DNA of 42,873 bases from an uncultured Alphaproteobacteria bacterium (GTDB taxonomy: Bacteria > Pseudomonadota > Alphaproteobacteria > CAAHEQ01 > UBA3637), in the NCBI GenBank assembly GCA_947629595.1, contig CANREI010000001.1, positions 1 to 42,873 of the forward strand. Direction: 5' to 3'. The notes beneath the pieces were generated by a model. It saw nothing but the letters and a program-made list of their open reading frames with translations, was not told the DNA's origin and made no database searches. How positions within the stretch are numbered: the stretch's first letter is position 1; every line of letters starts with the position of its first letter. Of the stretch, positions 41 through 41,969 are shown piece by piece. Both the position numbers and the translations under genes were made by a program.

Positions 41-196
41 AAACGTACGATTTTTGCAACACTTTTTTTTAAAATTTTGAAAAAATTTTTATTTTGGTTG
101 AAAACAATTGATTTTTCGACTGTTTTTGAGTGCTTGATTTTGGCATTTTGAAGGCAATTTTGACCCCCGAATCCGCGTTGCATTAAAGGTACGTTT
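41..196. promoter_or_regulatory. Candidate invertible DNA switch 1 (inverton) upstream of pilin-like lectin gene
   Basis: Arms AAACGTACGATTTTTGCAAC (41-60) and GTTGCATTAAAGGTACGTTT (177-196) are 16/20 reverse-complementary, with exact termini AAACGTAC and GCAAC. They bracket 116 bp of AT-rich DNA ending 37 nt before the ATG at 234. The same module recurs at 29106-29262 and 31446-31601. Confidence 0.6.
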
Positions 197-233
197 ATTT
201 TATGCTGTTTCTATCAGCAACGGGAGTAAAAAA

Positions 234-1574
234 ATGACGAAATATGCAAGAAAAAATCAATTCAAACACGCGGAAATGCAGGGAAATAAAGAACAAATCG
301 CACCAGGGGAAACGGGGAGTCAAAAAATGACAAGAAAATCAAAAAAACAAATTCAAAATCAAGCACAAGCGGGATATATGCAAAGCAATGAACCGCAAAT
401 TGCAGGCGGGGAAGCGGGAAAACAAAATAGAAGCAAAACATACACTCAAAGCGGTAAAATGATGATTAAAAATACACAAGATAAAAAGGAAATCTCAAAA
501 AATAAATCAATGCTTTCAGAGCAATATATCTACAAGAAAAATATCATTCGAACGCGCTCTCAAGACGGGCGCAGTATGGTTGAAATGCTCGGGGTGTTGG
601 CCATTATCGGTGTTTTAAGTATTGGCGGAATCGCAGGGTATCGGTGGGGCATGGATAAGCATGTATCGAATCAGATTCTTTACGAAATGAATCTGAACAG
701 CGCCCAGTTAGCTATGTTATTACAAAAGGGAAATTCCGACGGGGTAACACTTTCTTTGGGTTCGCCTTATGATGATGCCGAGCCGAGATATCGCACCGTT
801 GATTATGGCTTTGATTACGGGTGTGAAGAAGAAGTCGAAGGAGAATTACATAAATGTTATAACCCCGATGAAACGGGATATTTTATATCAGCCTTAAATT
901 TGCCGGAACGAATTGCCAATATGGTGATTGAATCGGCACCCAATTTGCAATATTATGTTGATTATGAAGAAACGGTGGCAGATGAAGTTGAAAACAAAAC
1001 AGATGTCACCATATTCTTTGATATAAATGCCGATGCAACCGAATCGCTTCCCGATTCGGAAGTAACACAACCTGAAACAACGAAGCAGGTGAAATGCACT
1101 GAACATACTGACTGTAAGCCGAATGAATATTGCGATAGGAGTGTGGACGATTGTCGTGATGGAAAGCCTGTTCTTGCTGCGAGCGGACATTATTGTAAGA
1201 GTATAGAAAACAGTGATTATACATCAGTAGAAGTCGCAAATAGCGAAGGTATTAAAACAAAATTTTACAGATCAACATCAGAGCTGGATTGGTGGGAAGC
1301 CGAAGCATTTTGTAGAGCGTTGGGAAATAAGCTGGGTGATACAAACATACATTTGGTGAATTTGCGTGAACTGGGGTGTCCGGAAAGCAAAAATTCTTCT
1401 TGCCCGGCAACTTCATACGGAGCGGCATTGGCGAACAAGCTTCAACTTTCCGATTACGGATGGACGAGCATAAATGATAGTGAAGATAAGTGTATTGCCT
1501 ATAACATGAGTCTGATAAGCGGTTACGTTCGCAACGACAAGCTCAACAACCTCAACTATGCCTTATGCAAATGA
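234..1574 (+). CDS. Modular type IV pilin-like protein (K/Q-rich leader, prepilin-type N-terminus, Cys-rich linker, C-type-lectin-like C-terminal domain)
   Basis: GGGAG RBS lies 7 nt before the ATG. G112|RSMVE-MLGVLAIIGVLSIGGIAGY fits a class III signal (Gly -1, Glu +5, about 20 hydrophobic residues). The C-terminal pattern WWEAEAFC...GC...C...CIAY...GYVR...YALC has CTLD-like Cys/Trp spacing. Paralog at 29399..31222. The true start may be an internal Met (M76/M77 or M93), since the leader would otherwise be 112 aa. Confidence 0.75.
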   Translation: MTKYARKNQFKHAEMQGNKEQIAPGETGSQKMTRKSKKQIQNQAQAGYMQSNEPQIAGGEAGKQNRSKTYTQSGKMMIKNTQDKKEISKNKSMLSEQYIYKKNIIRTRSQDGRSMVEMLGVLAIIGVLSIGGIAGYRWGMDKHVSNQILYEMNLNSAQLAMLLQKGNSDGVTLSLGSPYDDAEPRYRTVDYGFDYGCEEEVEGELHKCYNPDETGYFISALNLPERIANMVIESAPNLQYYVDYEETVADEVENKTDVTIFFDINADATESLPDSEVTQPETTKQVKCTEHTDCKPNEYCDRSVDDCRDGKPVLAASGHYCKSIENSDYTSVEVANSEGIKTKFYRSTSELDWWEAEAFCRALGNKLGDTNIHLVNLRELGCPESKNSSCPATSYGAALANKLQLSDYGWTSINDSEDKCIAYNMSLISGYVRNDKLNNLNYALCK

Positions 1575-21787: not shown

Positions 21788-24700
21788 ATGAATAACAAAT
21801 TAGCTGTTGCTGCTTTAATTTTTCCGTTAATGATGACAAGTACCGTTGCTTATTCGGCTGATACCATAAACACGTTTGATGATTTAAAAAAGGCGATTGA
21901 AGAAGAGAAAAAAAATGATATTCTGCTCGGCGCTGATATTTCGTTTTCGGAAAAGAAACAATTTACCGCTGCTGCTTTTGATTTAAAGAATGGTGACAAA
22001 ACAGAAGCTCATCTCACGATTGACGGCGATGGTCATACTCTTCGGGGTACTACATTCACTGCCACCAAAGGCAATTCAGATGCCTTTTTATTAGAAAGTG
22101 GTTCATTAACATTAAAAAACGTAACGGTTAAAGATTTTATTGGCAGTAGTTCAGCGCCATGGACCGGTGCTATCACGCTGCGTGGCGGAACATTAACTTT
22201 AACGGCGGAACAAGAAAAAAATGTTGTTTTTGAAAATAATAATGTGGAACGTCGCGGCGGGGGCGGAGATATTTACTTGGGAAACGATGCTAAACTAATC
22301 GTAAATGGCGACGGTGGTCAGGTTGCATTAAAAACGGGTGTATTCGGAAGCGGTACGATAACGCATCAAGGAAATTCATTGCTTGTTTTGGGTGGCACTA
22401 ATGGCGCTTTTACGGGCAGTTTTACCAATGAAGACGGCGATGTTGAAGTAACCGGAAACAGCACTTTGTTCGGCAGAGGTAATGAGTTTAAAAAAGGCAC
22501 GTTAAAATGGAATTCGAAGAGCGGTTTATCTTCGGGTTCTACTTTATCTCTTTCAAAAGGAACGGGGTTAATTGTGGGTGAAGATGAAAAGGTCAATGCC
22601 CGGTTAACGCTTAAAAAAGGGCAAACAAAATTGGAAAATGGTGTTTCTTTAACAACAAAGAACAACGGTGAATTGATTTTATCGGGTTGGACAGATCAAT
22701 TTAAAGAAAAAGTCAGCGGTAACGGCAAGTTGACTTTACAAAATACAAACCTTACCATTACCAATAATGAAATTGAAGAACATGATTTATTGCAAGTAAA
22801 GCTTGACGGGCAAAGTGCCGTTACGGGTGAAGATTTATCATTTGCTTCTTTAAGTAACGGTGGCACAGTAACGGCAACCGATGAATTAGATGTTCAAAAT
22901 CATGCCGATAACAGCGGTACCGTTTCGGGTAAAACTTTGAAAGTCGGTTCGCTGAATAATACGGGAAAGGTAACGGTTTCCGATGCCTTAACGGTGAGTG
23001 GCACAGGGCTTAGCGAATCCGAAAAAAGCGCTTTAATTAACGGTGTTCAAGCTGTTGCTACCGAAGCAGACGACGCCGAAGCGACAAAAGCTCAAATAAC
23101 TGCCGATACATTAACGGTAACGGGCGATGTTTCCAATAACGGCACAATTACGGTGACAAATGATGCAACGGTGCATGGAAATCTTGCCAATGAAAGCGGT
23201 ACATTCTCGGCAAAAGGCTTGACTGTTGACGGGAATATTACCAATAACGGCACCGTGACGGCGCAAGGGGCTCTTTCCGGTCAAAAATTAACGAATACGG
23301 GAACGGTTACCGCCGCTTCCGTTACGGTTTCCGATGCCGTTGAAAACAGCGGTACAATCACGGCAAGCGGTGAATTGAAGGCCGGGAGCGTGAAAAATGA
23401 AACACAAGGAAATATCACGTTTGCAGGCGGTACAATCGGCGGAACCGTTGAAAACGACGGCACAATCGAAAATTCGGGCAATTTAACAATTGCGGGTGCT
23501 GTTTCGGGAAAAGGCACGTTGAAGAATACGGGAACATTAACATTGAATGCCGACAGTCGTTCATTTACCGGAACATTTACGCAAACGGGCGAATCCAGCG
23601 CAACAACGGTTACAGGTGTGTTGGGCGGTACGAAAGATATTCAAAGCGGCTCGTTAACAATGTCTTCTTCCACACTTTATGACGGTCAAGTGAAATTGGG
23701 AAGCAATGCTCAACTTGATTTTACTTTACAAGCCATGGAAGATAAGGAACATCACAATGTTATCGGTAAAGACTCGTTAGCATTTACGGGAAGCGATGCG
23801 ACAGCCGCCTTTAAAGGTGTTGATAAATCGCACTTAACGTTGGCTGATGATGTGGAAAACTCAAAAGACAACAATATTTCTTTTGATAACACAACGCTGG
23901 GATTAAGCGGTACAACACATAATTATGATTATAAGTCGTTTGAATTAAAAAATTCCACGTTAAGCTTGGGTGACGAAAGCGGTGATGTGGAAGATTATAG
24001 TTTCAATAATTTCAAAACTTCCGGTTCGTCGGTTGATTTGAATTTGAAATTATCGGCAGAGGACAAATTAAGTTCCGATACGTTAACCTTTAAAGGTACC
24101 GGTGAAGGGACGTTAAACGTGGGTAAAGTTTATTTATCCGATGAATCGACAAGTAACGACGGCTCCTATACCGCAGATGTTGTTAAAAATGAAGGTGAGA
24201 ACAGCCATGTTCAATTGGGAATTGAGGGCGATGATGCCGATATACATGTTGCGTCAAGCAAATATACGTATGATTTGGAAGTGCAAGACGGAAAGAACGT
24301 TTCATTGACAAAAACAGGAGACACAACGAATGACACGTTGGCAGACTTAAACCACGATCAACCAGGAACAAGAGATTTTGAAGTTATTGACTCTTATACA
24401 ACGGATAAGGATCTTGGAAAGACTCAGAAAGGCACAATACTTGTTTACGGTGAAAGCAAAACAGGGGCAGAGGTGTTAGACGGCGGCGGACATTCTCTCT
24501 TTGATATTGAAAAAAATACAGAAGTTCAAGTCGGCCTTTCCGATTTAACCGTTCAAAATGCCGCAACAACCAATCCCAAAGGCGGATCGGTTGTGCATAA
24601 CGAAAGCGATTCCGCAAAAGTTGAACTGAAAAATGTGACGGTTAAAAATAATAAAGGTGCCGTTTATAATAAAGGCGGTCACTATGAGAGCGGTGACTAT

Positions 24701-27700
24701 GAAGATGCACAATTGCTTTCTATTTTAGATGCAACATTTTCAGGAAATGCTGCCGGTGTTGAAACTGTCGGTTCTGATACGCTCGGCAAACTCGGGGCTG
24801 CCGTTTATAATGACAATGATGTCGTTACCGGCGGTCGCGGTGTGATTTATATGGAAGATGTGAGCTTTGAAAAAGGAACAGAGGAAGCTCAAAACGATAT
24901 TTACAACGCCGGTGATATTTATGTTAACAGCGAAGATGTTAAAAATAGGTTCGGAAGTAAAATTACAAATGCCCAAACAGGGTCAATGGAATTTTACGGT
25001 CAAAATGAGGTTTCAGATATTGAAAATGATCATGGTCGGTTGAAATTTGCCGGAACAGATGTCCATATTGAAAATTTGAACACCAATGGCGGTACCGTTT
25101 TGCTTGAAAGTCAAAATGCAACGCTCGATTCGGTTTCAAATACCGGCGGTAACATTGTAGCTGATAAGGAAACAAACACCACTATTGATAATTTGGACTT
25201 ATTGACCGAAACCGAAACGACAGACAATGCAAAAGGAAAACTGACCGTTGAGGATGGTCAAGTGACTTTGAATACCGTGAGCGGTGATGCAGATACGACA
25301 ATTGAAAACAGTCAAGGTAATCTTTTCTTAAACGGCAGTGCTTTCGGATTTGCCGGCACGTTTACACAAGAATCCGGCACAACAACCGTTGCGGAAGGAG
25401 CCGGTTTCTTCGGTGGTATTTCTACCGTTTCGGGCGGCACGCTTTATTGGAAAACAATAAATGATTTGGGCAATGAAGCCTTGCTTACGGTTGAAGGTGA
25501 TTCGCAATTGGTTATCGGCAACTTTGAAAATGTCCAAAGTAGCGAAAGTCAAGCACGCAGCGCCGAACCGAATGTGACTTTAACGTTGCAAAACGGAAGC
25601 TCGGTTAATGCAAAAGTGGCTCTTGCCGACGGGGCTTCATTAAATGTGAATGAAGCCGGTTCCGCAACATTGAACGACGGTTCCTATTGGAGCGGTACGA
25701 TTACCGTGAACGGCGGTGATTTAACCGTGAACGCACAATCACCGATTCAAACCGCAACAGGCTCGTTGAAAGCTTCAAAAGGGGCCGTTACCTTAAACGA
25801 CGGTTCTTCCTTAAATGTGAATGCCGATAGTTTTATTGACGGAGCGGTTACATTTACGGGTGCAGAGAATACAAACTTGTTTGTTTCCGGCGGATCGGTC
25901 ACATTGAATGAGGGTGATACCGTTGAAGGGCACACGGCCTTATTTGACGGCGGTACGCTGACTTATGAAGGTACAAAAGTTGGTGACAATGCTTCCTTAA
26001 CGGCAACCGATGGTAATTTGAATATCGTTAAAGGATCTTCCTTAACGGTTGATGCCGAAAAGAATACCGTTGCCGATGCGGTTCATGTGACCATTGATAA
26101 AGAGTCAAGCGTGGCTGTTAAAAACGGCGGTTCGCTCAGCATTGACGACGCGGATTCTTGGGGCGGACAAATTACCCTTGATGACGGATCGTTAACTTAC
26201 GGTGCCAAAGACAACGGTATTTTAACGGCTAACACCGGTTCTTTGAATTTAATAAGCGGTAGTGAATTAACTTTAAACAGTGAAAGTGAAATTAAAGATG
26301 CCGTTTCCATAGATATTCAAAACGGTGCAACCGTTAAAGTTGACGGCGGTGCGTTAACGCTGAACAGCCATACCGAAGATAAATGGCACGGTTTGATTGA
26401 AAATAACGGCGGTACTCTTACCACTTTGGGTGTTGATACCACAACGGAAGGTTTTGCCGGACAGTTTAAGCAATCATCAGGCACGGCCCTTTTTGATGCC
26501 GCTTCGAATATTGTGATTGCCAATCCGAATACGGCCATTACCGGCGGTAATGTTTCCGTGTTGAGCGGATCGCATTTGTCGTTTGTTGACGGTGAAAATA
26601 TTCAATTGAATAACTTAACCGTGAGCGGAAACTCATCGTTCGGCATTAAGAACGAAAAGGGACAAACCGTTACGCTTGATTCCTTAACGATTGACGGCGA
26701 GAACAATTTTGATATGGATTTGCAAGGCGCTGCGGGAGACGGTGATTTGTTTGTCATTAAAGATTTGAAGGGCAGCGGTACAATTAACGTGTCCGACTTT
26801 GCGTTTGCGGGCAGTGTGCCGACAACACGGCAAGTGGATATGCAGCTGTTTCAGGTTGAAAACGGCGGGGAAGGTGTTTCCTTCAATTCAACAAGCGGTG
26901 CCGTTTCCACGCCGTTGGGTGATTACATTTTGCAATCCCTGGGGAACGGTTCTTATCGGGCAACGCTTGATAAGCTGAATCCCGATGTTTACAGAGGACA
27001 GGCTTCAACGTTGGCTATGTATAATAACCAGCTGGAAATCGATGATATGATTTTAAATCATGCCATTGTGGAAAACGGTTTCGGGCAACAAGCTGCCGCG
27101 CAATCAAAAGCCGACAGAACGCGTTTGAATGAGGACGGCGGTTTGTGGAGCAAAGCCTACTACCACGACGGCAATATGGATTTAAGCCGGAACTTGGATA
27201 TGGATACCACCGCTTACGGCTTGTTTATCGGTGCCGATTTGCCGATGACGGATTTAGGCTGCGGTTGGAATTTTGTTCCCACGGTCTTTGCGGGCTATAA
27301 CGGTTCCAAACAAGAATACAATGATATTGATATGAAACAAAACGGCGGCCAAGGCGGTGTGATGGGAACGTTTGCGAAAAATGATTTCGTTACGTCCGTT
27401 ATGGCTTATGCCGGCGGTTATTCCAACAAAATGAAAGGCCACGGCTATGAAGACAGCACGCATAACTGGTTTGTCGGTACGGCAGCCAAAGCGGCTTATA
27501 ACTGGCATGTTGCCGATCAGGTTGTTGTGCAACCGACAGCGTTTGTTTCTTACAACACATTCGGTAAGCAGGATTGGACAACACAATTCGGCAATATGAA
27601 TATGTCAACCGATACCTTAAACGGTTTCAGCGTGGCGCCGGGAATTAACGTTATTTACGCACCGAAAACATGGAGTACCTATGCTTCGTTGCAATATGTT

Positions 27701-27916
27701 TATAATGTGAATAATAAAGTCGGCGGCCGGGCCGGAACAGATGTTGATTTACCGAAATTGAAAACGGATAACGGATTTGTTCAATACGGTATCGGCGCAA
27801 CAAAAATGTTGGGTGATCAATGGAATACCGATTTCCGCGTTACGGCCGAAAGCGGCGGCAGAACGGGTGTCGGTTTCCGCTTGGGTATCGAATATTTGTT
27901 CGGTGTAACAAAGTAA
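21788..27916 (+). CDS. Large type Va autotransporter adhesin-like protein (2042 aa)
   Basis: Signal peptide (MNNKLAVAALIFPLMMTSTVAYSA). Long passenger of G-T-[LIV]-T beta-strand repeats (NNGTITVTND, NTGTVTAAS and similar). C-terminal beta-barrel of roughly 280 aa (GLWSKAYYHDG...GFRLGIEYLF). Confidence 0.9.
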   Translation: MNNKLAVAALIFPLMMTSTVAYSADTINTFDDLKKAIEEEKKNDILLGADISFSEKKQFTAAAFDLKNGDKTEAHLTIDGDGHTLRGTTFTATKGNSDAFLLESGSLTLKNVTVKDFIGSSSAPWTGAITLRGGTLTLTAEQEKNVVFENNNVERRGGGGDIYLGNDAKLIVNGDGGQVALKTGVFGSGTITHQGNSLLVLGGTNGAFTGSFTNEDGDVEVTGNSTLFGRGNEFKKGTLKWNSKSGLSSGSTLSLSKGTGLIVGEDEKVNARLTLKKGQTKLENGVSLTTKNNGELILSGWTDQFKEKVSGNGKLTLQNTNLTITNNEIEEHDLLQVKLDGQSAVTGEDLSFASLSNGGTVTATDELDVQNHADNSGTVSGKTLKVGSLNNTGKVTVSDALTVSGTGLSESEKSALINGVQAVATEADDAEATKAQITADTLTVTGDVSNNGTITVTNDATVHGNLANESGTFSAKGLTVDGNITNNGTVTAQGALSGQKLTNTGTVTAASVTVSDAVENSGTITASGELKAGSVKNETQGNITFAGGTIGGTVENDGTIENSGNLTIAGAVSGKGTLKNTGTLTLNADSRSFTGTFTQTGESSATTVTGVLGGTKDIQSGSLTMSSSTLYDGQVKLGSNAQLDFTLQAMEDKEHHNVIGKDSLAFTGSDATAAFKGVDKSHLTLADDVENSKDNNISFDNTTLGLSGTTHNYDYKSFELKNSTLSLGDESGDVEDYSFNNFKTSGSSVDLNLKLSAEDKLSSDTLTFKGTGEGTLNVGKVYLSDESTSNDGSYTADVVKNEGENSHVQLGIEGDDADIHVASSKYTYDLEVQDGKNVSLTKTGDTTNDTLADLNHDQPGTRDFEVIDSYTTDKDLGKTQKGTILVYGESKTGAEVLDGGGHSLFDIEKNTEVQVGLSDLTVQNAATTNPKGGSVVHNESDSAKVELKNVTVKNNKGAVYNKGGHYESGDYEDAQLLSILDATFSGNAAGVETVGSDTLGKLGAAVYNDNDVVTGGRGVIYMEDVSFEKGTEEAQNDIYNAGDIYVNSEDVKNRFGSKITNAQTGSMEFYGQNEVSDIENDHGRLKFAGTDVHIENLNTNGGTVLLESQNATLDSVSNTGGNIVADKETNTTIDNLDLLTETETTDNAKGKLTVEDGQVTLNTVSGDADTTIENSQGNLFLNGSAFGFAGTFTQESGTTTVAEGAGFFGGISTVSGGTLYWKTINDLGNEALLTVEGDSQLVIGNFENVQSSESQARSAEPNVTLTLQNGSSVNAKVALADGASLNVNEAGSATLNDGSYWSGTITVNGGDLTVNAQSPIQTATGSLKASKGAVTLNDGSSLNVNADSFIDGAVTFTGAENTNLFVSGGSVTLNEGDTVEGHTALFDGGTLTYEGTKVGDNASLTATDGNLNIVKGSSLTVDAEKNTVADAVHVTIDKESSVAVKNGGSLSIDDADSWGGQITLDDGSLTYGAKDNGILTANTGSLNLISGSELTLNSESEIKDAVSIDIQNGATVKVDGGALTLNSHTEDKWHGLIENNGGTLTTLGVDTTTEGFAGQFKQSSGTALFDAASNIVIANPNTAITGGNVSVLSGSHLSFVDGENIQLNNLTVSGNSSFGIKNEKGQTVTLDSLTIDGENNFDMDLQGAAGDGDLFVIKDLKGSGTINVSDFAFAGSVPTTRQVDMQLFQVENGGEGVSFNSTSGAVSTPLGDYILQSLGNGSYRATLDKLNPDVYRGQASTLAMYNNQLEIDDMILNHAIVENGFGQQAAAQSKADRTRLNEDGGLWSKAYYHDGNMDLSRNLDMDTTAYGLFIGADLPMTDLGCGWNFVPTVFAGYNGSKQEYNDIDMKQNGGQGGVMGTFAKNDFVTSVMAYAGGYSNKMKGHGYEDSTHNWFVGTAAKAAYNWHVADQVVVQPTAFVSYNTFGKQDWTTQFGNMNMSTDTLNGFSVAPGINVIYAPKTWSTYASLQYVYNVNNKVGGRAGTDVDLPKLKTDNGFVQYGIGATKMLGDQWNTDFRVTAESGGRTGVGFRLGIEYLFGVTK

Positions 27917-27972: not shown

Positions 27973-27992
27973 ATGGGCTGACTGTTGAAATT

Positions 27993-28004
27993 TAGCGTTC
28001 GCTA
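27993..28004. repeat. 12-bp palindrome TAGCG-TT-CGCTA (site A of a pair)
   Basis: Perfect half-site dyad around a central TT. The partner at 28136-28147 is identical except that the central dinucleotide is AA. Confidence 0.8.
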
Positions 28005-28135: not shown

Positions 28136-28147
28136 TAGCGAACGCTA
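28136..28147. repeat. 12-bp palindrome TAGCG-AA-CGCTA (site B of a pair)
   Basis: See site A. Lies 70 nt upstream of the recombinase ATG. Confidence 0.8.
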
Positions 28148-28217
28148 TCTTTCAATATCATTTCAGAAAACTATATGACTTCTGTTTCATAAACAAGTTA
28201 AACTAGGAGTTCCAAAA

Positions 28218-29105: not shown

Positions 29106-29262
29106 AAACGTACGTTTTTTGCAACACTTTTTTTTGATTTTTTCAAAAAAAATTTATTTGGAGGTGTTTTTAATGCAATATCAACGGGTTATAAAAAGCC
29201 TGTTTCACCAATTTTTGAGGGTATTTTTGCCCCCGAAACCGCGTTGCATTAAAGGTACGTTT
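29106..29262. promoter_or_regulatory. Candidate invertible DNA switch 2 (inverton)
   Basis: Arms AAACGTACGTTTTTTGCAAC (29106-29125) and GTTGCATTAAAGGTACGTTT (29243-29262) are 17/20 complementary. The last ~30 internal nt resemble switch 1. It ends 38 nt before the ATG at 29301 and lies 295 nt downstream of the recombinase gene. Confidence 0.6.
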
Positions 29263-29300: not shown

Positions 29301-29423
29301 ATGACAATGCAATTCAAAAAACAAGTTCAAAATCAAGCACAAGCGGTATATATGCAAAGCAACGAACCGCAAATTGCAGGCGGGGAAGCGGAAAAAAAAT
29401 GCAAATTCGGCAGGACAAAATAA
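29301..29423 (+). other. Out-of-frame 5' leader segment of the second pilin-like gene
   Basis: GGGAG RBS 7 nt before the ATG, as in gene 234. It encodes MTMQFKKQVQNQAQAVYMQSNEPQIAGGEA, homologous to residues 36-62 of the first paralog. It leaves the main frame at the A8 tract 29392-29399 and stops at 29423. Confidence 0.6.
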
Positions 29424-31222
29424 TTGGGAAAACACAAATTCGGCAAGATAAAATCATTGAAAATCAATCACAAAGCGGTAAAATGATGATTAAAAATACA
29501 CAGAACAAAAAAGAAAGCTCAAAACATAAATCAATGCTTTCAATTTACAAGAAAAATATCATTGAAACACACTCTCAAAGTGGCCGTTCCATGATTGAAA
29601 TGCTGGGTGTGTTGGCTATTATTGCCATTTTATCAATCGGAGGGATTGTGGGGTTTCGATTGGCAATGAATTACTATCGAGCATCACAAATTGCCCATGA
29701 AATGAATATGATGCGCACCGATGCGCAAATAAAAATTGCCCAAGGGACGGAAGAGTTAATGCTCGGAGAACCTTATGATCCTGTCAACGATTCCCTCGGA
29801 CATATTCAGTTTAATGATGCGTATCTTGTTGATTTTGATTGTATTTATATGAAAACGGAAATATCAGAACCCGAACCTGCTTTTTGTACCGGTGCCAATG
29901 CTTATTATATAGAATTGCAAAACATTCCCGAAGGTGTTTGTAAACCGCTGGCAAACTTAATTGATAAAATGGATAATGAAATTGCCTTTTACATTAACGG
30001 AAACTCTGTTGATGCGGAAGAGGGAGAAAAAGGCGTTTGCAATGCAGAATTCAATACATTAAGGGTCATCTTCGGTGCCGATTCGGATTCGAACGCCATT
30101 AAATGCGGTGGTGCCGATGACCCCGCTTGTCCAACAGAACTGCCTGTTTGCCTTAACCATATGTGTGTGGAATGCGAAGAAAGTAATGATTGCGGCGAGT
30201 TTGAAGTTTGTGATCGGGAAACGGGAAGATGTATCGATGATTGTACGAAAGGCGCATGTAACAGTGGTGTTTGTGTGGGCGGCGTTTGTAAAGAATGCAA
30301 AAACATGGAAGATTGCGACAACGGTTTAGCATGCATAGACAATCAATGTATGCGTTGCGAAAACGAATCGGATTGCGAAGAAAAACATTGCATAGAAGGT
30401 TCATGTGTTGACTGTACGGAACCGACACCGAAATATAACGCGACAGAAAACAGGTGCGTGGAATGTATAGATAGTGAAGATTGTGAAAATCCGAAACCAT
30501 ATTGTAATCCCACAACAAATACATGCGAACCGTGTGAAAATGATTTACAGTGCGATACAACGCAAAACGAACATTGCCAAGTTTCCACCGGATCGTGTAT
30601 TATATGTGATGTCTATACAGAAGTTTGGGATGAAGAGTTAAAAGATTGTCGTTTGGCAAAATCTTGTAAGGAATTAGATTGCCCGATAGATACATTCTGT
30701 TTAAGTGGCAAGTGTAATGCTCCATGTCCAACCGATGAGGTAATAACAATAGAAGAAGAAGTCTGTAATAGCTTTTTTTGTCGACCAACAAATATTGGTT
30801 TTGTGCAAGGGCAAGTAAATGGAAGAAGCTATTATGGAAACAGATATAGCCTAAACTGGTGGAGTTCTCAGCGATTTTGCCAAGCAGCAGCCCGCGAAGC
30901 AGGTGTAACAAGTGGTCGATTGGTGAGTTGGAGTGATATTAATTGGCAATGTTATAATGATGCTAACAAACCGGATCCAACAAACAAGAAAGATGGATAC
31001 TGCAAAGCAACAAACGATGATTCCGGTAGTGATAATGTGTCGAAAGCAATAACAGATTTGAGAAATATGTATCAATGTACTAGTCAATGTTTTCCATGGC
31101 TGCAAGAGGCATATAGTTCTTGTCGGGCGTATGATGTAAATCTTTTCGACGGATATGTGCGACCCTATTCTTTTGGCGGTAACGGCAGTTATGCTGATTA
31201 TGCTTTATGTGTAGGTAATTGA
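29399..31222 (+). CDS. Modular type IV pilin-like protein paralog with expanded Cys-rich repeats and C-type-lectin-like C-terminus
   Basis: G62|RSMIE-MLGVLAIIAILSIGGIVGF prepilin motif. At least 4-5 repeats of C-x2-C-x3-5-DC-x5-8-C-x5-8-C (for example CVECEESNDCGEFEVCDRETGRCIDDC). C-terminal WWSSQRFC...C...CRAYDV..FDGYVR...YALC. The functional start is uncertain (29399, 29483 or 29534, or 29301 after a +1 slip). Confidence 0.75.
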   Translation: MQIRQDKIIGKTQIRQDKIIENQSQSGKMMIKNTQNKKESSKHKSMLSIYKKNIIETHSQSGRSMIEMLGVLAIIAILSIGGIVGFRLAMNYYRASQIAHEMNMMRTDAQIKIAQGTEELMLGEPYDPVNDSLGHIQFNDAYLVDFDCIYMKTEISEPEPAFCTGANAYYIELQNIPEGVCKPLANLIDKMDNEIAFYINGNSVDAEEGEKGVCNAEFNTLRVIFGADSDSNAIKCGGADDPACPTELPVCLNHMCVECEESNDCGEFEVCDRETGRCIDDCTKGACNSGVCVGGVCKECKNMEDCDNGLACIDNQCMRCENESDCEEKHCIEGSCVDCTEPTPKYNATENRCVECIDSEDCENPKPYCNPTTNTCEPCENDLQCDTTQNEHCQVSTGSCIICDVYTEVWDEELKDCRLAKSCKELDCPIDTFCLSGKCNAPCPTDEVITIEEEVCNSFFCRPTNIGFVQGQVNGRSYYGNRYSLNWWSSQRFCQAAAREAGVTSGRLVSWSDINWQCYNDANKPDPTNKKDGYCKATNDDSGSDNVSKAITDLRNMYQCTSQCFPWLQEAYSSCRAYDVNLFDGYVRPYSFGGNGSYADYALCVGN

Positions 31223-31445: not shown

Positions 31446-31601
31446 AAACGTACGATTTTTGCAACACTTTTTTTTAAAATTTTGAAAAAATTTTTTACTC
31501 AAGTGTAATTTTTTGATTTTTAAAAATTTTTTTTACTTTTTCTTTCAGTGGTTGCAAGGGTCTGAAAAATGCAAAAAAAGCGTTGCATTAAAGGTACGTT
31601 T
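31446..31601. promoter_or_regulatory. Candidate invertible DNA switch 3 (inverton) upstream of the GIY-YIG gene pair
   Basis: Arms AAACGTACGATTTTTGCAAC (31446-31465) and GTTGCATTAAAGGTACGTTT (31582-31601). The first ~35 internal nt are identical to switch 1. Contains a plus-strand TTGAAA-16-TGTAAT promoter-like pair. Ends 56 nt before the ATG at 31658. Confidence 0.6.
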
Positions 31602-31657: not shown

Positions 31658-32074
31658 ATGAGTGAAAATTTGAGCATAACAACAAGTTTGGCAGATATTT
31701 TTCAATTGCCCGAACCGATAGACCAATATACTTTGCATTTTGCAACGGGAGCATGGCGTGCCTTTACGGAAACACCGGAAATATGGATTAAAAACTGGAA
31801 TTCCAATGTGAATGCAGGCAGAACAAAAAAAGCTTTTACCCGAAAATATATTATTTCTTTTGTCAATTACGATCATAATGAATGGTTATTCGGCGGTATT
31901 ATTCGCTTATTAAACAATCAGGGGGAAGAAGAGCCGATTTTAACTGATTTATATGCTGATCTTGTGGGCAGACTCGTTGTAACTTTTCAGAAAGGGAGAA
32001 CTCCTTACTTACAATTAAACCACCAGCGTTTTAAAGAAATTAAAGTTAAACAAATTTTGGATCAACCCAAGTAG
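31658..32074 (+). CDS. Stand-alone copy of the N-terminal domain of the downstream GIY-YIG protein
   Basis: AGGAGG RBS. The 138-aa product is about 88 percent identical by eye to residues 1-142 of ORF 32104..32943 and lacks the nuclease domain. Confidence 0.7.
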   Translation: MSENLSITTSLADIFQLPEPIDQYTLHFATGAWRAFTETPEIWIKNWNSNVNAGRTKKAFTRKYIISFVNYDHNEWLFGGIIRLLNNQGEEEPILTDLYADLVGRLVVTFQKGRTPYLQLNHQRFKEIKVKQILDQPK

Positions 32075-32103: not shown

Positions 32104-32943
32104 ATGAGTGAAAATTTGAGCTTAACAACAAGTTTGGCAGATATTTTTCAATTGCCCGAACCGATAGATAAATATTATTTGCACTTTGCAACGGGAGCAT
32201 GGCATGCCTTTACGGAAACACCGGAAATATGGATTAAAAACTGGAATTCCAATGTAAATGCAGACAAATCGAAAAGATCGAAAAAAGCTTTTACCCGAAA
32301 ATACATTATTTCTTTTGTCAATTACGATTCTCATGAATGGTTATTCGGCGGTATTATTCGCTTATTAAATGATCAGGGAGAAGAAGAGCCGATTTTATTA
32401 ACTGATTTATATGGTGATCTTGTGGGCAGATTGGTTGTAACTTTTAAGAAATGGAGAACTTATCACCTTAAATTAAACCACCAGCGTTTTAAAGAAATTA
32501 AAGTCAAACAAATTTTGGATCAACCGATTCTTTCAAAACAATTTAGCTCTTACGAAGATGTGCATTTAACTTTTAATGAATTGAAAAACATTGTTGACAG
32601 ACAAATAACGCAATGGAAAGAAAAACTTTCTTTTGTTCAAGGAATTTATTTAATTTTTGATAAAGAAAGTCGAAAAATATATATCGGCAAGGCAGACGGT
32701 TCTTGCGGTATTTGGGAACGTTGGAGCTGCTATGCGCATTCGGACGGAACGGGATATAATGATAAATTGGTAGAATTGATAAAAACAAACGGTGCGGAAT
32801 ATGCTTCAAATTTTGAATTTACTTTATTGGAATATGCTTATTTGGGGCAGATAAAGGATAAAAATTATTTCAATGAGCGGGAAAGTTATTGGAAAAAGGT
32901 TTTCCATTCACGCATTGAAAGTGTCGGGTTGAACGCAAATTAA
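32104..32943 (+). CDS. GIY-YIG nuclease family protein with uncharacterised ~145-aa N-terminal domain
   Basis: GIY (180-182), 10 residues, then YIG (193-195). Followed by IWERW (conserved Arg), NERESYWKKVF (conserved Glu) and a terminal GLNAN. Confidence 0.8.
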   Translation: MSENLSLTTSLADIFQLPEPIDKYYLHFATGAWHAFTETPEIWIKNWNSNVNADKSKRSKKAFTRKYIISFVNYDSHEWLFGGIIRLLNDQGEEEPILLTDLYGDLVGRLVVTFKKWRTYHLKLNHQRFKEIKVKQILDQPILSKQFSSYEDVHLTFNELKNIVDRQITQWKEKLSFVQGIYLIFDKESRKIYIGKADGSCGIWERWSCYAHSDGTGYNDKLVELIKTNGAEYASNFEFTLLEYAYLGQIKDKNYFNERESYWKKVFHSRIESVGLNAN

Positions 32944-40754: not shown

Positions 40755-41969
40755 ATGGCAGATTCTAAAGAAGAACAATCTTGGTTTTCCCAAGCTTGGG
40801 ATTGGACACGCAATTCGTTATTAGGGCGTACGATCGGGATAGATGATGCAACAAAAGCAGGTAAAGAATCAAAAGGCCTGTGGGGTGAAACAAAAGATTT
40901 GCTGGGTATCGGCAGTTCCGATGAAACCAAGGGAAAAAGCGCCGAAGCAGAAGAAAACAAATCTTGGTTTTCTCAGGCTTGGGATTGGACACGCAATTCA
41001 TTGTTAGGGCGTACAATCGGAATAGATGATGCAACAAAAGCCGGTAAAGAATCAAAAGGCTTGTGGGGTGAAACAAAAGATCTGCTGGGTATCGGCAGTT
41101 CCAAAGAAACCGATGAAAAAGGAGCCGCAAAACAAACCGAATCAAAAGGCCTGTGGGGTTGGATGAAAAACTCCCTGCTCGGGCGTACTTTCGGGTTGGC
41201 CGATGAAGGCAATAACGAACCCGGTTTGTGGGGGTGGATGAAAAACTCCATGCTCGGGCGCACTTTCGGTTTGGAAGACAAAGGCAATGACAAACCCGGT
41301 TTATGGGGGTGGATGAAAAATTCCATGCTGGGGCGTGCTTTGGGATTAGCCGATAAAAAAGAAGCAACGGCTAATACGGCGACGGCGCAACAAACGCAAG
41401 CGCCGCAGCAAAAAACAGCTACCGTGAGCAATCAGCAAACCAATACGCAACAAGTGCAAAGAACATCGAACGGGGCGATTATTGATGATGTGATTGTGGA
41501 GCATTCAACGGTTAATGCGCCGAAAGCAGCGGCGAAAGCAGCAGCCCCGAAAGCAGCGGCACCTAAGACACCGGCGAAAGAAGCAGCACCGAAAAAGGCA
41601 GCGCCGAACACGGCAACGAAAGAAGCAGCATCGAATATAAGACTGGAGGATATAGGGTCGGAATTCGGAGCCGGGATGCCGACGTTGGAGGCAGCTTCCT
41701 TGAACATAACAGCACCCCGCCTCCTTGATCCGTCGGTGTCGGAGGTGACTTTGGGTTATAATCCTAAAACTTCCGGAACAACGCTTATCGACGCTAACGA
41801 ATCATCGAATCTTTGTTCCCTTTTGAATACAATTACGGCAGTCAGAAATGGTACCACAGTCGATGGTTTCGGATTAAACCCCCTTGACACGAAGACCGTA
41901 GGCGATAATGCCGGACTGGGAGCCGTACCCAACATTGCCGGTATTTACCTGGGGGATAAAGCGCGCTGA
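40755..41969 (+). CDS. Repeat protein with Trp-rich amphipathic motifs and an A/P/K-rich tract
   Basis: GGAGG RBS. Two 61-aa repeats (SWFSQAWDWTRNSLLGRTIGIDDATKAGKESKGLWGETKDLLGIGSS). Three 25-aa repeats (GLWGWMKNS[LM]LGR[TA][FL]GL). Then APKAAAKAAAPKAAAPKTPAKEAAPKKAAP. Confidence 0.75.
   Translation: MADSKEEQSWFSQAWDWTRNSLLGRTIGIDDATKAGKESKGLWGETKDLLGIGSSDETKGKSAEAEENKSWFSQAWDWTRNSLLGRTIGIDDATKAGKESKGLWGETKDLLGIGSSKETDEKGAAKQTESKGLWGWMKNSLLGRTFGLADEGNNEPGLWGWMKNSMLGRTFGLEDKGNDKPGLWGWMKNSMLGRALGLADKKEATANTATAQQTQAPQQKTATVSNQQTNTQQVQRTSNGAIIDDVIVEHSTVNAPKAAAKAAAPKAAAPKTPAKEAAPKKAAPNTATKEAASNIRLEDIGSEFGAGMPTLEAASLNITAPRLLDPSVSEVTLGYNPKTSGTTLIDANESSNLCSLLNTITAVRNGTTVDGFGLNPLDTKTVGDNAGLGAVPNIAGIYLGDKAR

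Follow-up and report, generated by a model that had tools for sequence, protein, structure and literature searches.

Among the large type IVb pilins, R64 PilV obtains alternative specificities from alternative C-termini. Modular pilins as a whole are an established and widespread kind of protein (PMC8179133, PMC10191384), of which more than 1,200 in 264 architectures have already been reported (Raynaud et al. 2021, PMC8179133). On the side of gene regulation, the Mpi invertase of Bacteroides fragilis acts in trans and flips 13 dispersed promoter regions (PMC4747536). Here we analyze a stretch of 42,873 nucleotides from an uncultured alphaproteobacterium (GenBank assembly GCA_947629595.1, contig CANREI010000001.1, positions 1 to 42,873; hereafter the window), and in particular the gene at 234..1574 on its forward strand, which probably encodes the precursor of a modular, type IVb-like pilin-family adhesin. 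An original prediction, made from the sequence alone, had described this product as a pilin-like protein with a lectin-like module and an anomalously long leader, and had held that modular pilins were described in only a few species, a view that the above survey contradicts. It had also overlooked three features of the window: a paralogue of the gene, a conserved inverted-repeat element upstream, and a gene for an Mpi-family invertase.

A large unnamed family in gut Alphaproteobacteria

The gene is a complete, ATG-initiated open reading frame (ORF) for a putative modular pilin-like precursor of 446 amino acids (aa). All landmarks named earlier are present, namely the ORF itself, an ATG at 234 supported by a ribosome-binding site, the G↓RSMVE motif (the arrow marks the predicted cleavage site) with a hydrophobic helix, the Cys-rich string, and the C-terminal landmarks. 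Residues 112–136 read G↓RSMVEMLGVLAIIGVLSIGGIAGY, and the signal region as a whole is SQDG112↓RSMVE117MLGVLAIIGVLSIGGIAGY, where LGVLAIIGVLSIGGIAGY comes after E117. The Cys-rich unit CTEHTDCKPNEYCDRSVDDC and the WW..FC, CIAY and YALC landmarks fall on nearly invariant columns in an alignment of 77 homologues, with C288, C294, C300 and C321 nearly invariant as well. An exact-sequence look-up found no record of the 446-aa protein, nor of two of its relatives (P0040 and P0046), and a scan with Pfam and NCBIfam models returned sub-threshold matches alone (N_methyl, DUF7107, DUF5127, and ExbB). The DUF7107 match (E = 0.26) falls on the Cys-rich unit, a place that is occupied by EGF-like repeats in paralogues.

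A search of 5.8 billion proteins with the whole protein yielded 725 homologues at E ≤ 1e-3 (counted as clusters at 90% identity), none of them named and nearly all without a Pfam domain. At least 568 coding stretches were found in species-representative genomes. Almost all of the 79 distinct loci listed stem from records titled as metagenome-assembled genomes (MAGs) of Alphaproteobacteria, the three others being titled Gastranaerophilales, Acidaminococcaceae, and Lactobacillales, and the record titles name gut samples of rabbit, roe deer, sheep, goat, water buffalo, and Hadza humans. Among the loci fetched, at least 14 members lie in a single MAG, at least 10 of them large and 4 small. The family genes are dispersed singly through the genomes, outside pilus operons. 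Sequence comparison thus places the gene in a paralogous family that is very large, has no name, and occurs in uncultured Alphaproteobacteria of the gut.

The aligned members share one layout, in which a leader is followed by G-R-S-M-x-E-M-L. Next comes an N-domain of some 155 residues, in which the motifs PYD, (F/Y)DYGC and LPE..C are conserved, and then a linker that varies between members and is acidic or Thr-rich, Cys-rich units, and a C-terminal domain of about 110 residues. The number of Cys-rich units varies across the family, and in some members they are EGF-like. In homologues, the short linker of our protein (residues 269–282) is exchanged for long T/E/P-rich linkers.

A class III signal shared with small pilins

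The N-terminus shows the layout of a class III signal, with a hydrophilic leader ending at Gly112, about 20 hydrophobic residues, and a Glu at +5. Seven positions (G112, R113, S114, M115, E117, M118, and L119) do not vary among the 28 homologues first aligned. The same G, R, S, M, E, M, and L remain invariant across the 77-sequence alignment, in which a nearly invariant hydrophobic stretch follows, and the N-terminus that is invariant family-wide reads G↓RSMVEMLGVLAIIGVLSIGGI. As Gly −1 and Glu +5 are fixed while the segment before them varies between 6 and 184 residues, this segment behaves like a leader that is removed.

The same MAGs also encode small relatives of 120–188 aa with 6–11-aa leaders and an identical GRSMVEMLGVLAIIGVLS N-terminus, most of which are closed by a C-terminal Cys pair; given the short leaders, the shared N-terminus, and the Cys pair, they look like ordinary pilins. 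Two of them exceed the Pfam cut-offs for PilS and Bundlin (22 and 22.3 bits, respectively): L072 with 43 and 27 bits, and L075 with 28 and 33 bits. In addition, L072 matches the structure of bundlin BfpA (1zwt, E = 1e-4), and L075 alone among the relatives with this N-terminus passes NCBIfam TIGR02532 (16.8 versus 16.3 bits). The genes neighbouring these PilS/Bundlin-type pilins are housekeeping genes. The 446-aa protein itself has no match to PilS (PF08805), Bundlin (PF05307), or TIGR02532.

Machinery genes were searched for by tblastn with E. coli HofB/C, PpdD, and GspD/E/F/G/K/L/O against the window and 1.1 Mb of sequence flanking family genes in related MAGs. A search of the rest of the genome had been proposed with the original prediction. 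In the related MAGs, we found a Peptidase_A24 gene (L025:3071–3775) about 6 kb from a family gene and a 627-aa T2SSE ATPase (L046:16443–18326). This one peptidase and one ATPase were the only matches in the 1.1 Mb of flanks, which revealed neither a platform protein nor a secretin. Family context and the machinery in related MAGs together make the class III reading well supported for the family, and the prepilin-type signal proposed earlier is upheld through the N-terminus that our protein has in common with PilS-, Bundlin-, and TIGR02532-passing proteins. The large member studied here is presumed to be incorporated into a filament.

The structure predicted by AlphaFold 2 (AF2) for the whole protein from the 77-sequence alignment has a mean pLDDT (predicted local distance difference test) of 86.6, with an N-terminal helix at model residues 15–66. 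When the N-module is modeled alone (predicted template-modeling score 0.76; pLDDT mostly 80–97), the helix spans residues 2–53 and is followed by a four-stranded head. It had been stated that the mature part is not a normal pilin globular domain. This is correct insofar as the head matches no solved pilin head, but according to the model, a discrete pilin-type module does open the mature protein (residues 113 to ~268). The top fold matches of the N-module were RNA polymerase subunit L/Rpb11-like β-α-β folds (E ≥ 0.09), which we treated as noise, and the matches of this module to engineered proteins, obtained with a whole-family profile against PDB sequences, were likewise judged spurious.

A predicted compact C-type-lectin-like domain at the C-terminus

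Structure prediction and a fold search for a C-type-lectin-like domain (CTLD), the check originally asked for, returned almost exclusively CTLDs, with marginal E-values. In a Foldseek search of the PDB with the whole model, the C-terminal domain gave matches with probabilities of 0.89–1.0 and TM-scores (by target) of 0.45–0.61. Seven of the first nine are annotated as C-type lectins (snake-venom CTLs and TC14), and DEC205, uPARAP, the mannose receptor, and PLA2R follow at lower ranks. Rank 1 is the C-terminal domain of Legionella Lcl. A domain-only profile led to the same fold: 15 of its 16 matches among PDB sequences are C-type lectin domains (E = 0.01–0.8), which share one register across the β1-α1 region 'W..A..FC..LG..L.S', and the whole-family profile gave the same picture for this domain.

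The order of secondary structure elements read from the AF2 model (β1-α1-α2-β2-β3-β4-β5) fits a CTLD. C360 in helix 1 and C445 in the last strand (...ALC) are nearly invariant and positioned as the disulfide pair of CTLDs, so that the helix Cys of W-x-x-A-x-x-F-C could pair with that of the C-terminal ALC. Pfam Lectin_C (PF00059) did not match, and no Pfam model covers the domain. Overall, the models and profiles support a compact CTLD-like fold. The earlier proposal of a C-type-lectin-like domain on a pilin is therefore retained for its modular layout and fold, which AF2, Foldseek, and the profile search all favor, but not for lectin activity, which is not implied by a compact CTLD that lacks the EPN, QPD, and WND motifs for Ca and sugar binding.

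The domain is not restricted to proteins of this size. Searching 1.84 billion representatives with the domain gave 871 clusters (50% identity), including giant proteins of 6,368, 4,335, 3,034, and 2,070 aa with 20, 13, 4, and 4 copies, respectively (P0121–P0124). The N-termini of the giants are class III-like, G↓R(S/T)(M/L)xE plus a hydrophobic helix (G↓RSLFE, G↓RTMLE, and G↓RSMVE). A minority of the domain carriers have ordinary Sec-type N-termini, which indicates that the domain is an independent module.

A leader built from duplicated cassettes

The 112-residue leader is basic (18 K and 15 Q; K+R = 23, D+E = 9). The internal repeat recognized in it before is real, as the DNA of 234–326 aligns with that of 327–434 at a local score of 50, compared to 21.2 ± 3.4 and a maximum of 34 in 500 shuffles (z ~8). 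What has to be revised is its standing as a singular anomaly, given that relatives carry recurrent stacks of duplicated leader cassettes of 43–184 aa. Most of the 120 best homologues have leaders of 9–20 residues. In one subclade, the ORFs called contain leaders of 43, 47–51, 62, 69, 73–78, 85, 89, 112, 138, and 184 aa with their units in frame, of which the 89- and 138-aa calls overstate the leader because they start upstream of the Shine-Dalgarno sequence (SD), in translated promoter sequence.

Five kinds of unit can be distinguished. The leader in question consists of A+B+B'+D, with A being a diverged copy of B+B', and a further unit C of relatives is made of QIRQDKII repeats. Unit A (MTKYARKNQFKHAEMQGNKEQIAPGETGSQK) recurs in P0045–49, P0089, P0092, and P0097, and unit B (MTRKSKKQIQNQAQAG) constitutes the entire leader of P0105 and P0043 and is conserved at the DNA level in the second family gene of the window (paralogue 2). 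At least 15 homologues have unit B' in their leaders, which are 43 or 74 aa long. Unit D (KMMIKNTQDKKEISKNKSMLSEQYIYKKNIIRTRSQDG, following the pattern KMMIKNTQDKKE.SKNKSMLSEQYI.KKNIIQTQSQSG) is common to paralogue 2, P0039, P0040, P0042, and P0053. Units B, B', C, and D finish like a normal leader in (N/T)Q(A/S)QxG, while unit A finishes in a translated SD (...GETGSRK). Since the peptide GETGS(R/Q)K-MT corresponds to the SD, spacer, and ATG of the next unit in translation, the units are tandem duplications of an SD-ATG-leader cassette. Strong SDs precede only ATG 234 and ATG 327. For this reason, the precursor most likely carries a leader of 112 or 81 residues, the length of which we read as tolerated baggage that is removed at processing and not as a functional domain.

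An inverted-repeat element and a putative master invertase

Upstream of the gene lies an element of 156 bp with imperfect inverted repeats at its ends, and two more copies are present in the window (Table 1). Its distal arm is AAACGTACGATTTTTGCAAC (AAACGTACG(A/T)TTTTTGCAAC) and its proximal arm GTTGCATTAAAGGTACGTTT, the arms measuring 25–31 nt with the core AAACGTACGT. The element also precedes about 27 family genes in related MAGs, small pilins included, at a constant length of 156–157 bp. A promoter-like pair can be read by eye, with a −35 box in the proximal arm and a −10 box just outside the element, and nearly every copy has TTGCAT-17/18 nt-TATRCW at this position; the proposed TTGCAT/TATGCT promoter received no score in a generic sigma-70 scan. 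Just upstream of paralogue 2, this alphaproteobacterial contig encodes a serine recombinase that matches the Mpi equivalog model NF009949 (283 bits versus a cut-off of 272) and the Pfam Resolvase and HTH models. Invertase homologues are also located near family genes at L017 and L060, and at L060 the gene adjoins a small pilin that has no inverted-repeat element.

From its sequence features, the element is a candidate promoter/operator cassette or a candidate Mpi-type invertible promoter, with the latter being possible rather than probable. Inversion would be expected to create junctions such as ...AAAAAAAAGTGTTGCAAAAATCGTACGTTTATTTTATGCT (hypothetical). Among the ~27 copies, none is inverted and all share one orientation relative to the gene. 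The orientation is also unchanged in independent assemblies of the same loci. In four other samples, the contigs end close to the element, and the readable ones keep the same orientation. Two scans of JGI (Joint Genome Institute) metagenomes gave no copy of the element, the lineage being absent from that collection. As a mostly-OFF population would look identical, consensus assemblies are compatible with inversion and with a fixed element alike. Contig ends lie in or beside the element at position 1 of the window, at L085 1, at L087 3942, and at L082 1–130. Such breaks are consistent with a multi-copy repeat or with a segment present in two orientations. A miniature inverted-repeat transposable element is an unlikely explanation for its position, considering that it precedes genes at a constant distance from the SD and is duplicated together with the 5' gene region.

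At L010 (8933–10206), a single element is located between divergent genes for small pilins of 143 and 147 aa, about 120 nt from each, with a TATACT −10-like box on both sides. Judged by its arrangement, the locus would be suited to toggling between alternative major pilins in both directions. A different inverted repeat of 20 nt (27985–28004 and 28136–28155; 90% complementary, 131 nt apart) lies between a 2042-aa ORF and the invertase gene, and each of its arms holds the near-palindrome TAGCG(A/T)(A/T)CGCTA.

Features and other genes of the window

The coordinates of all features are compiled in Table 1. Paralogue 2 is rich in Cys-rich repeats, and the G↓RSMVE motif occurs in it for the second time in the window. 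The other ORFs of at least 100 aa are housekeeping genes according to Pfam (TerB, MoxR-DUF58-DUF4381, FtsH, TilS, CpoB, UvrA, AlaRS, RecA, QueH, EF-Tu, LpoA, and RsmI), apart from a few without Pfam assignment. The 2042-aa ORF (21788..27916, +) has a signal-peptide-like start and an autotransporter-barrel-like C-terminal region with no Pfam match at E ≤ 1e-3; at L086, a 1472-aa protein with a Pfam Autotransporter domain adjoins a family gene. Behind element copy 3 lie tandem duplicate genes (31658..32074 and 32104..32943, +) that are 87% identical over 138 aa, the latter with an additional C-terminal half of ~140 aa, and neither with a Pfam match. A 404-aa ORF (40755..41969, +), again without a Pfam match, is composed of nested tandem repeats (183 nt ×2, 75 nt ×3), in which 12–15-nt units encode an Ala/Pro/Lys-rich stretch.

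Table 1 Features of the putative modular pilin gene, its upstream element, and related genes in the window
Feature	Position	Strand	Basis or remark
Element copy 1, 156 bp, imperfect inverted repeats	41..196	+	upstream of 234..1574
Promoter-like pair: −35 TTGCAT (178-183, in proximal arm), 17-nt spacer with ACGT-rich core, −10 TATGCT (201-206, just outside element)	178..206	+	read by eye
Shine-Dalgarno GGGAG	222..226	+	7 nt before ATG 234; sequence reading
Leader unit A, M1-K31, MTKYARKNQLKHAEMQGNKEQIAPGETGSRK	234..326	+	diverged copy of B+B'
Shine-Dalgarno GGGGAG inside unit A, serving ATG 327	314-319	+	sequence reading
Leader unit B, M32-G47, own SD-ATG	327..374	+	homologue leaders
Leader unit B', Y48-G74, YMQSNEPQIAGGEAGKQNRIKTHSQSG	375..455	+	homologue leaders
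Leader unit D, K75-G112, ends at predicted cleavage Gly112	456..569	+	homologue leaders
Mature N-terminus, RSMVE with Glu +5, hydrophobic α1N and remaining α1	570..728	+	alignment, AF2
Predicted 52-residue α1 helix	573-728	+	AF2
N-module globular head: four strands and one helix; conserved PYD, F/YDYGC, LPE..C	729..1037	+	AF2, alignment
Acidic Thr/Pro-containing flexible linker, residues 269-282	1038..1079	+	pLDDT <50
Cys-rich β-hairpin unit, C288...C321	1095..1196	+	AF2 (confident), alignment
Compact C-type-lectin-like domain (predicted), residues ~328-446	1215..1571	+	Foldseek, profile search
Serine recombinase, Mpi-family master DNA invertase, 197 aa	28218..28811	+	NCBIfam NF009949
Element copy 2, 156/157 bp	29106-29262	+	upstream of paralogue 2
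Paralogue 2, 607 aa, identical to P0051, Gly codon 29582	29399..31222	+	same class III N-terminus and C-terminal domain
Element copy 3	31446-31601		before unrelated duplicated gene

Proposed mode of action and alternative explanations

Assuming that the gene encodes a modular pilin-family adhesin, the basic, K/Q-rich leader would stay in the cytoplasm while the hydrophobic helix enters the inner membrane. A prepilin peptidase would then cut after Gly112 and leave a mature protein of 334 residues, which could join a type IV filament via α1, probably as a low-abundance or tip subunit, with the body of the filament being built from the small pilins with the identical N-terminus. The CTLD-like module would be displayed as a ligand-binding, adhesive head, and the many paralogues with differing Cys-rich repeats and C-terminal domains could provide a repertoire of specificities. 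The leader itself may have arisen by tandem duplication of the SD-ATG-leader cassette in the order A, B, B', D, leaving strong SD-ATG pairs at 234 and 327, from either of which it would be translated to be discarded at processing, with its length being tolerated.

Several observations weigh against this explanation. Pfam N_methyl (PF07963) reaches 12.8 bits in the 446-aa protein, below its cut-off of 21.2 bits, and remains below threshold in every small relative tested, and we know of no characterized pilin with Arg at +1. In the Foldseek search, the N-module gave no significant match to a solved pilin, the best being S. Typhi PilS at rank 44 (E = 0.78). Among window ORFs of at least 100 aa, neither Pfam nor tblastn revealed a gene for type IV pilus or type II secretion machinery or a prepilin peptidase, just as the original prediction had stated, and both the A24 peptidase and the T2SSE ATPase score below NCBIfam cut-offs and come from related MAGs, not from this genome. 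For the C-terminal domain, the CTLD matches are individually marginal (Foldseek E ~5e-3 and higher, profile E ≥ 0.01), which leaves homology and analogy side by side. Besides the missing Ca and sugar motifs mentioned above, it has no long-loop region, with only about 6 residues between the WTS and CIAY strands. Furthermore, members of 2,000–6,368 aa with similar N-termini are hard to picture as ordinary filament subunits, and leader units are out of frame upstream in paralogue 2 and broken by stops at L086.

Some of these points would suit a class III N-terminus that serves as a general handle for surface display with no pilus involved, such that the protein would be processed by a peptidase and held in the envelope, or in a bindosome- or pseudopilus-like structure comparable to archaeal class III sugar-binding proteins. 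The giants of 2,070–6,368 aa with 4–20 C-terminal domains behind the same type of N-terminus, the scattering of single family genes, and an N-module head unlike known pilin heads all speak for it. Nevertheless, the lineage also encodes pilin-sized PilS/Bundlin proteins with the same N-terminus, just as the major subunit of a filament would look, and the Glu5 and long α1 needed for polymerization are strictly conserved, which makes a display handle of this kind unlikely. The sub-threshold N_methyl score and the window without a peptidase gene, together with an N-terminal extension that is long, open, and weakly constrained, are what a type II inner-membrane protein would also show, in which an uncleaved signal anchor separates a 112-residue, K/Q-rich cytoplasmic domain from a periplasmic CTLD-like domain. 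We consider such an anchor very improbable, given that hundreds of homologues keep Gly −1 and Glu +5 without exception, whereas the 6–184 residues ahead of them vary in length and content, and that some relatives pass type IVb pilin models. Incorporation of a cleaved, pilin-type precursor into a filament remains our preferred explanation.

A further question, compatible with this preferred explanation, is how much of the leader is translated. Translation could start at ATG 327 or at M76, M77, or M93 (the last three lacking an SD), with the upstream sequence being a 5' untranslated region of decaying cassettes. In paralogue 2, the SD-supported ATG 29302 opens units B/B' (29302–29398) out of frame with the pilin ORF, and the same is true of an independent assembly. 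Beside this frame break lies a run of eight A (29391–29398), in which one more A would join the frames; an assembly error was considered here and rejected, as the independent assembly contains the identical run. At L086 (9211–10383), the inverted-repeat element and the mature N-terminus of P0042 are separated by about 1 kb of repeated leader-like units; stops interrupt the first of these, whereas the final 184 codons form an open frame. The coding signal of the units is weak. On the other hand, the first SD-ATG after the element opens a frame of 112 codons without a stop, as opposed to 4 and 7 stops in the other two frames, no SD precedes the alternative starts M76, M77, and M93, and the units are in frame in more than 25 diverged homologues. 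Translation is also favored by a comparison to a 96%-identical orthologue, in which 4 of 6 substitutions in 341–569 are synonymous third-position changes, and by paralogous leader units, which differ by 41/33/61 substitutions at codon positions 1/2/3, a mild third-position enrichment among pairs that are not independent. A largely untranslated leader is thus quite possible, although it is not what we favor.

Combining the gene family with the element and the invertase would lead to a phase-variable repertoire of dozens of pilin-anchored adhesins behind 156-bp invertible promoters, which one master invertase controls in trans and which all use the class III/α1 segment as display handle. We regard this joint scenario as doubtful. 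It may nonetheless accommodate the range from 350-aa proteins with one CTLD to 6,000-aa proteins with 20, if most promoters are OFF, as well as alternative major pilins toggled by a shared bidirectional switch (cf. L010), and the stacked leaders may then have come about as a side effect of recombination at the conserved 5' cassette.

Implications and comparison with known systems

In the gut communities of animals and humans, the uncultured host Alphaproteobacteria are common. If the family is displayed on filaments, its members would be prime candidates for the recognition of host glycans, mucin, or partner cells, and would form a natural library of compact CTLD-like binders. Leaders of up to 184 residues would, if true, widen several-fold the length range in which class III signal peptides are known, and the stacked leaders offer a test of how long a cytoplasmic leader may be for a prepilin peptidase to accept it. 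Should a master-invertase regulon of the Mpi type be confirmed outside Bacteroidales, it would mean that a distant gut lineage has adopted the surface-variation strategy of Bacteroides.

Compared to described proteins, the 446-aa product has the composition of a modular pilin sensu Raynaud et al. 2021, consisting of a pilin module, a linker (residues 269–282), and a non-pilus, CTLD-like domain. It thereby resembles S. sanguinis PilB (pilin plus vWA) and PilC (pilin plus concanavalin-A-like lectin), in which a class III pilin module is likewise joined by a short linker to a non-pilus domain with predicted ligand binding (PMC8179133). It differs from both in its cargo of a Cys knot and a compact CTLD-like domain, in the sub-threshold N_methyl score and the Arg at +1, and in belonging to a family with at least 14 genes per genome and stacked leaders. 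As no Pfam or InterPro signature, and no current domain library, detects the CTLD-like cargo, the family was invisible to the published census of modular pilins (PMC8179133) and is absent from it.

The nearest functional analogues are the large type IVb minor pilins CofB, TcpB, and PilV, although the fold search revealed no specific similarity to them. Like our protein, type IVb CofB, TcpB, and LngB as well as R64 PilV are large and combine a pilin domain and a linker with β-rich C-terminal binding domains, and a kinship to type IVb is also suggested by the small pilins of our lineage that pass the PilS and Bundlin models. With CofB, no similarity in sequence or fold was found beyond the helix (5ypz, Foldseek probability 0.08). 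In contrast to the type IVb minor pilins, our genes are dispersed with no T4b operon, and diversity comes from separate genes, with no shufflon. With the CTLD superfamily, including the D-domains of intimin and invasin and the snake-venom CTLs, the C-terminal domain shares the predicted order of strands and helices but lacks the long loop.

The upstream element likewise has a counterpart, as B. fragilis Mpi and the system in the window both combine a serine recombinase with short inverted-repeat elements upstream of dispersed genes for surface proteins. The core AAACGTACGT would fit ARACGTWCGT, which we take to be the Mpi repeat consensus. Unlike in B. fragilis, the host is an alphaproteobacterium, the downstream genes are pilin-like instead of capsule operons, the −35 box apparently lies in the repeat arm with the −10 box outside, and both orientations were never seen. 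Taken together, a protein that fails the curated sequence signature and has an unrecognized head domain is not plainly one more modular pilin, and what appears to be new in comparison with the known systems is its CTLD-like cargo, the Arg at +1, and the stacked leaders, along with a family of this size and host range and its giant members with multiple CTLDs.

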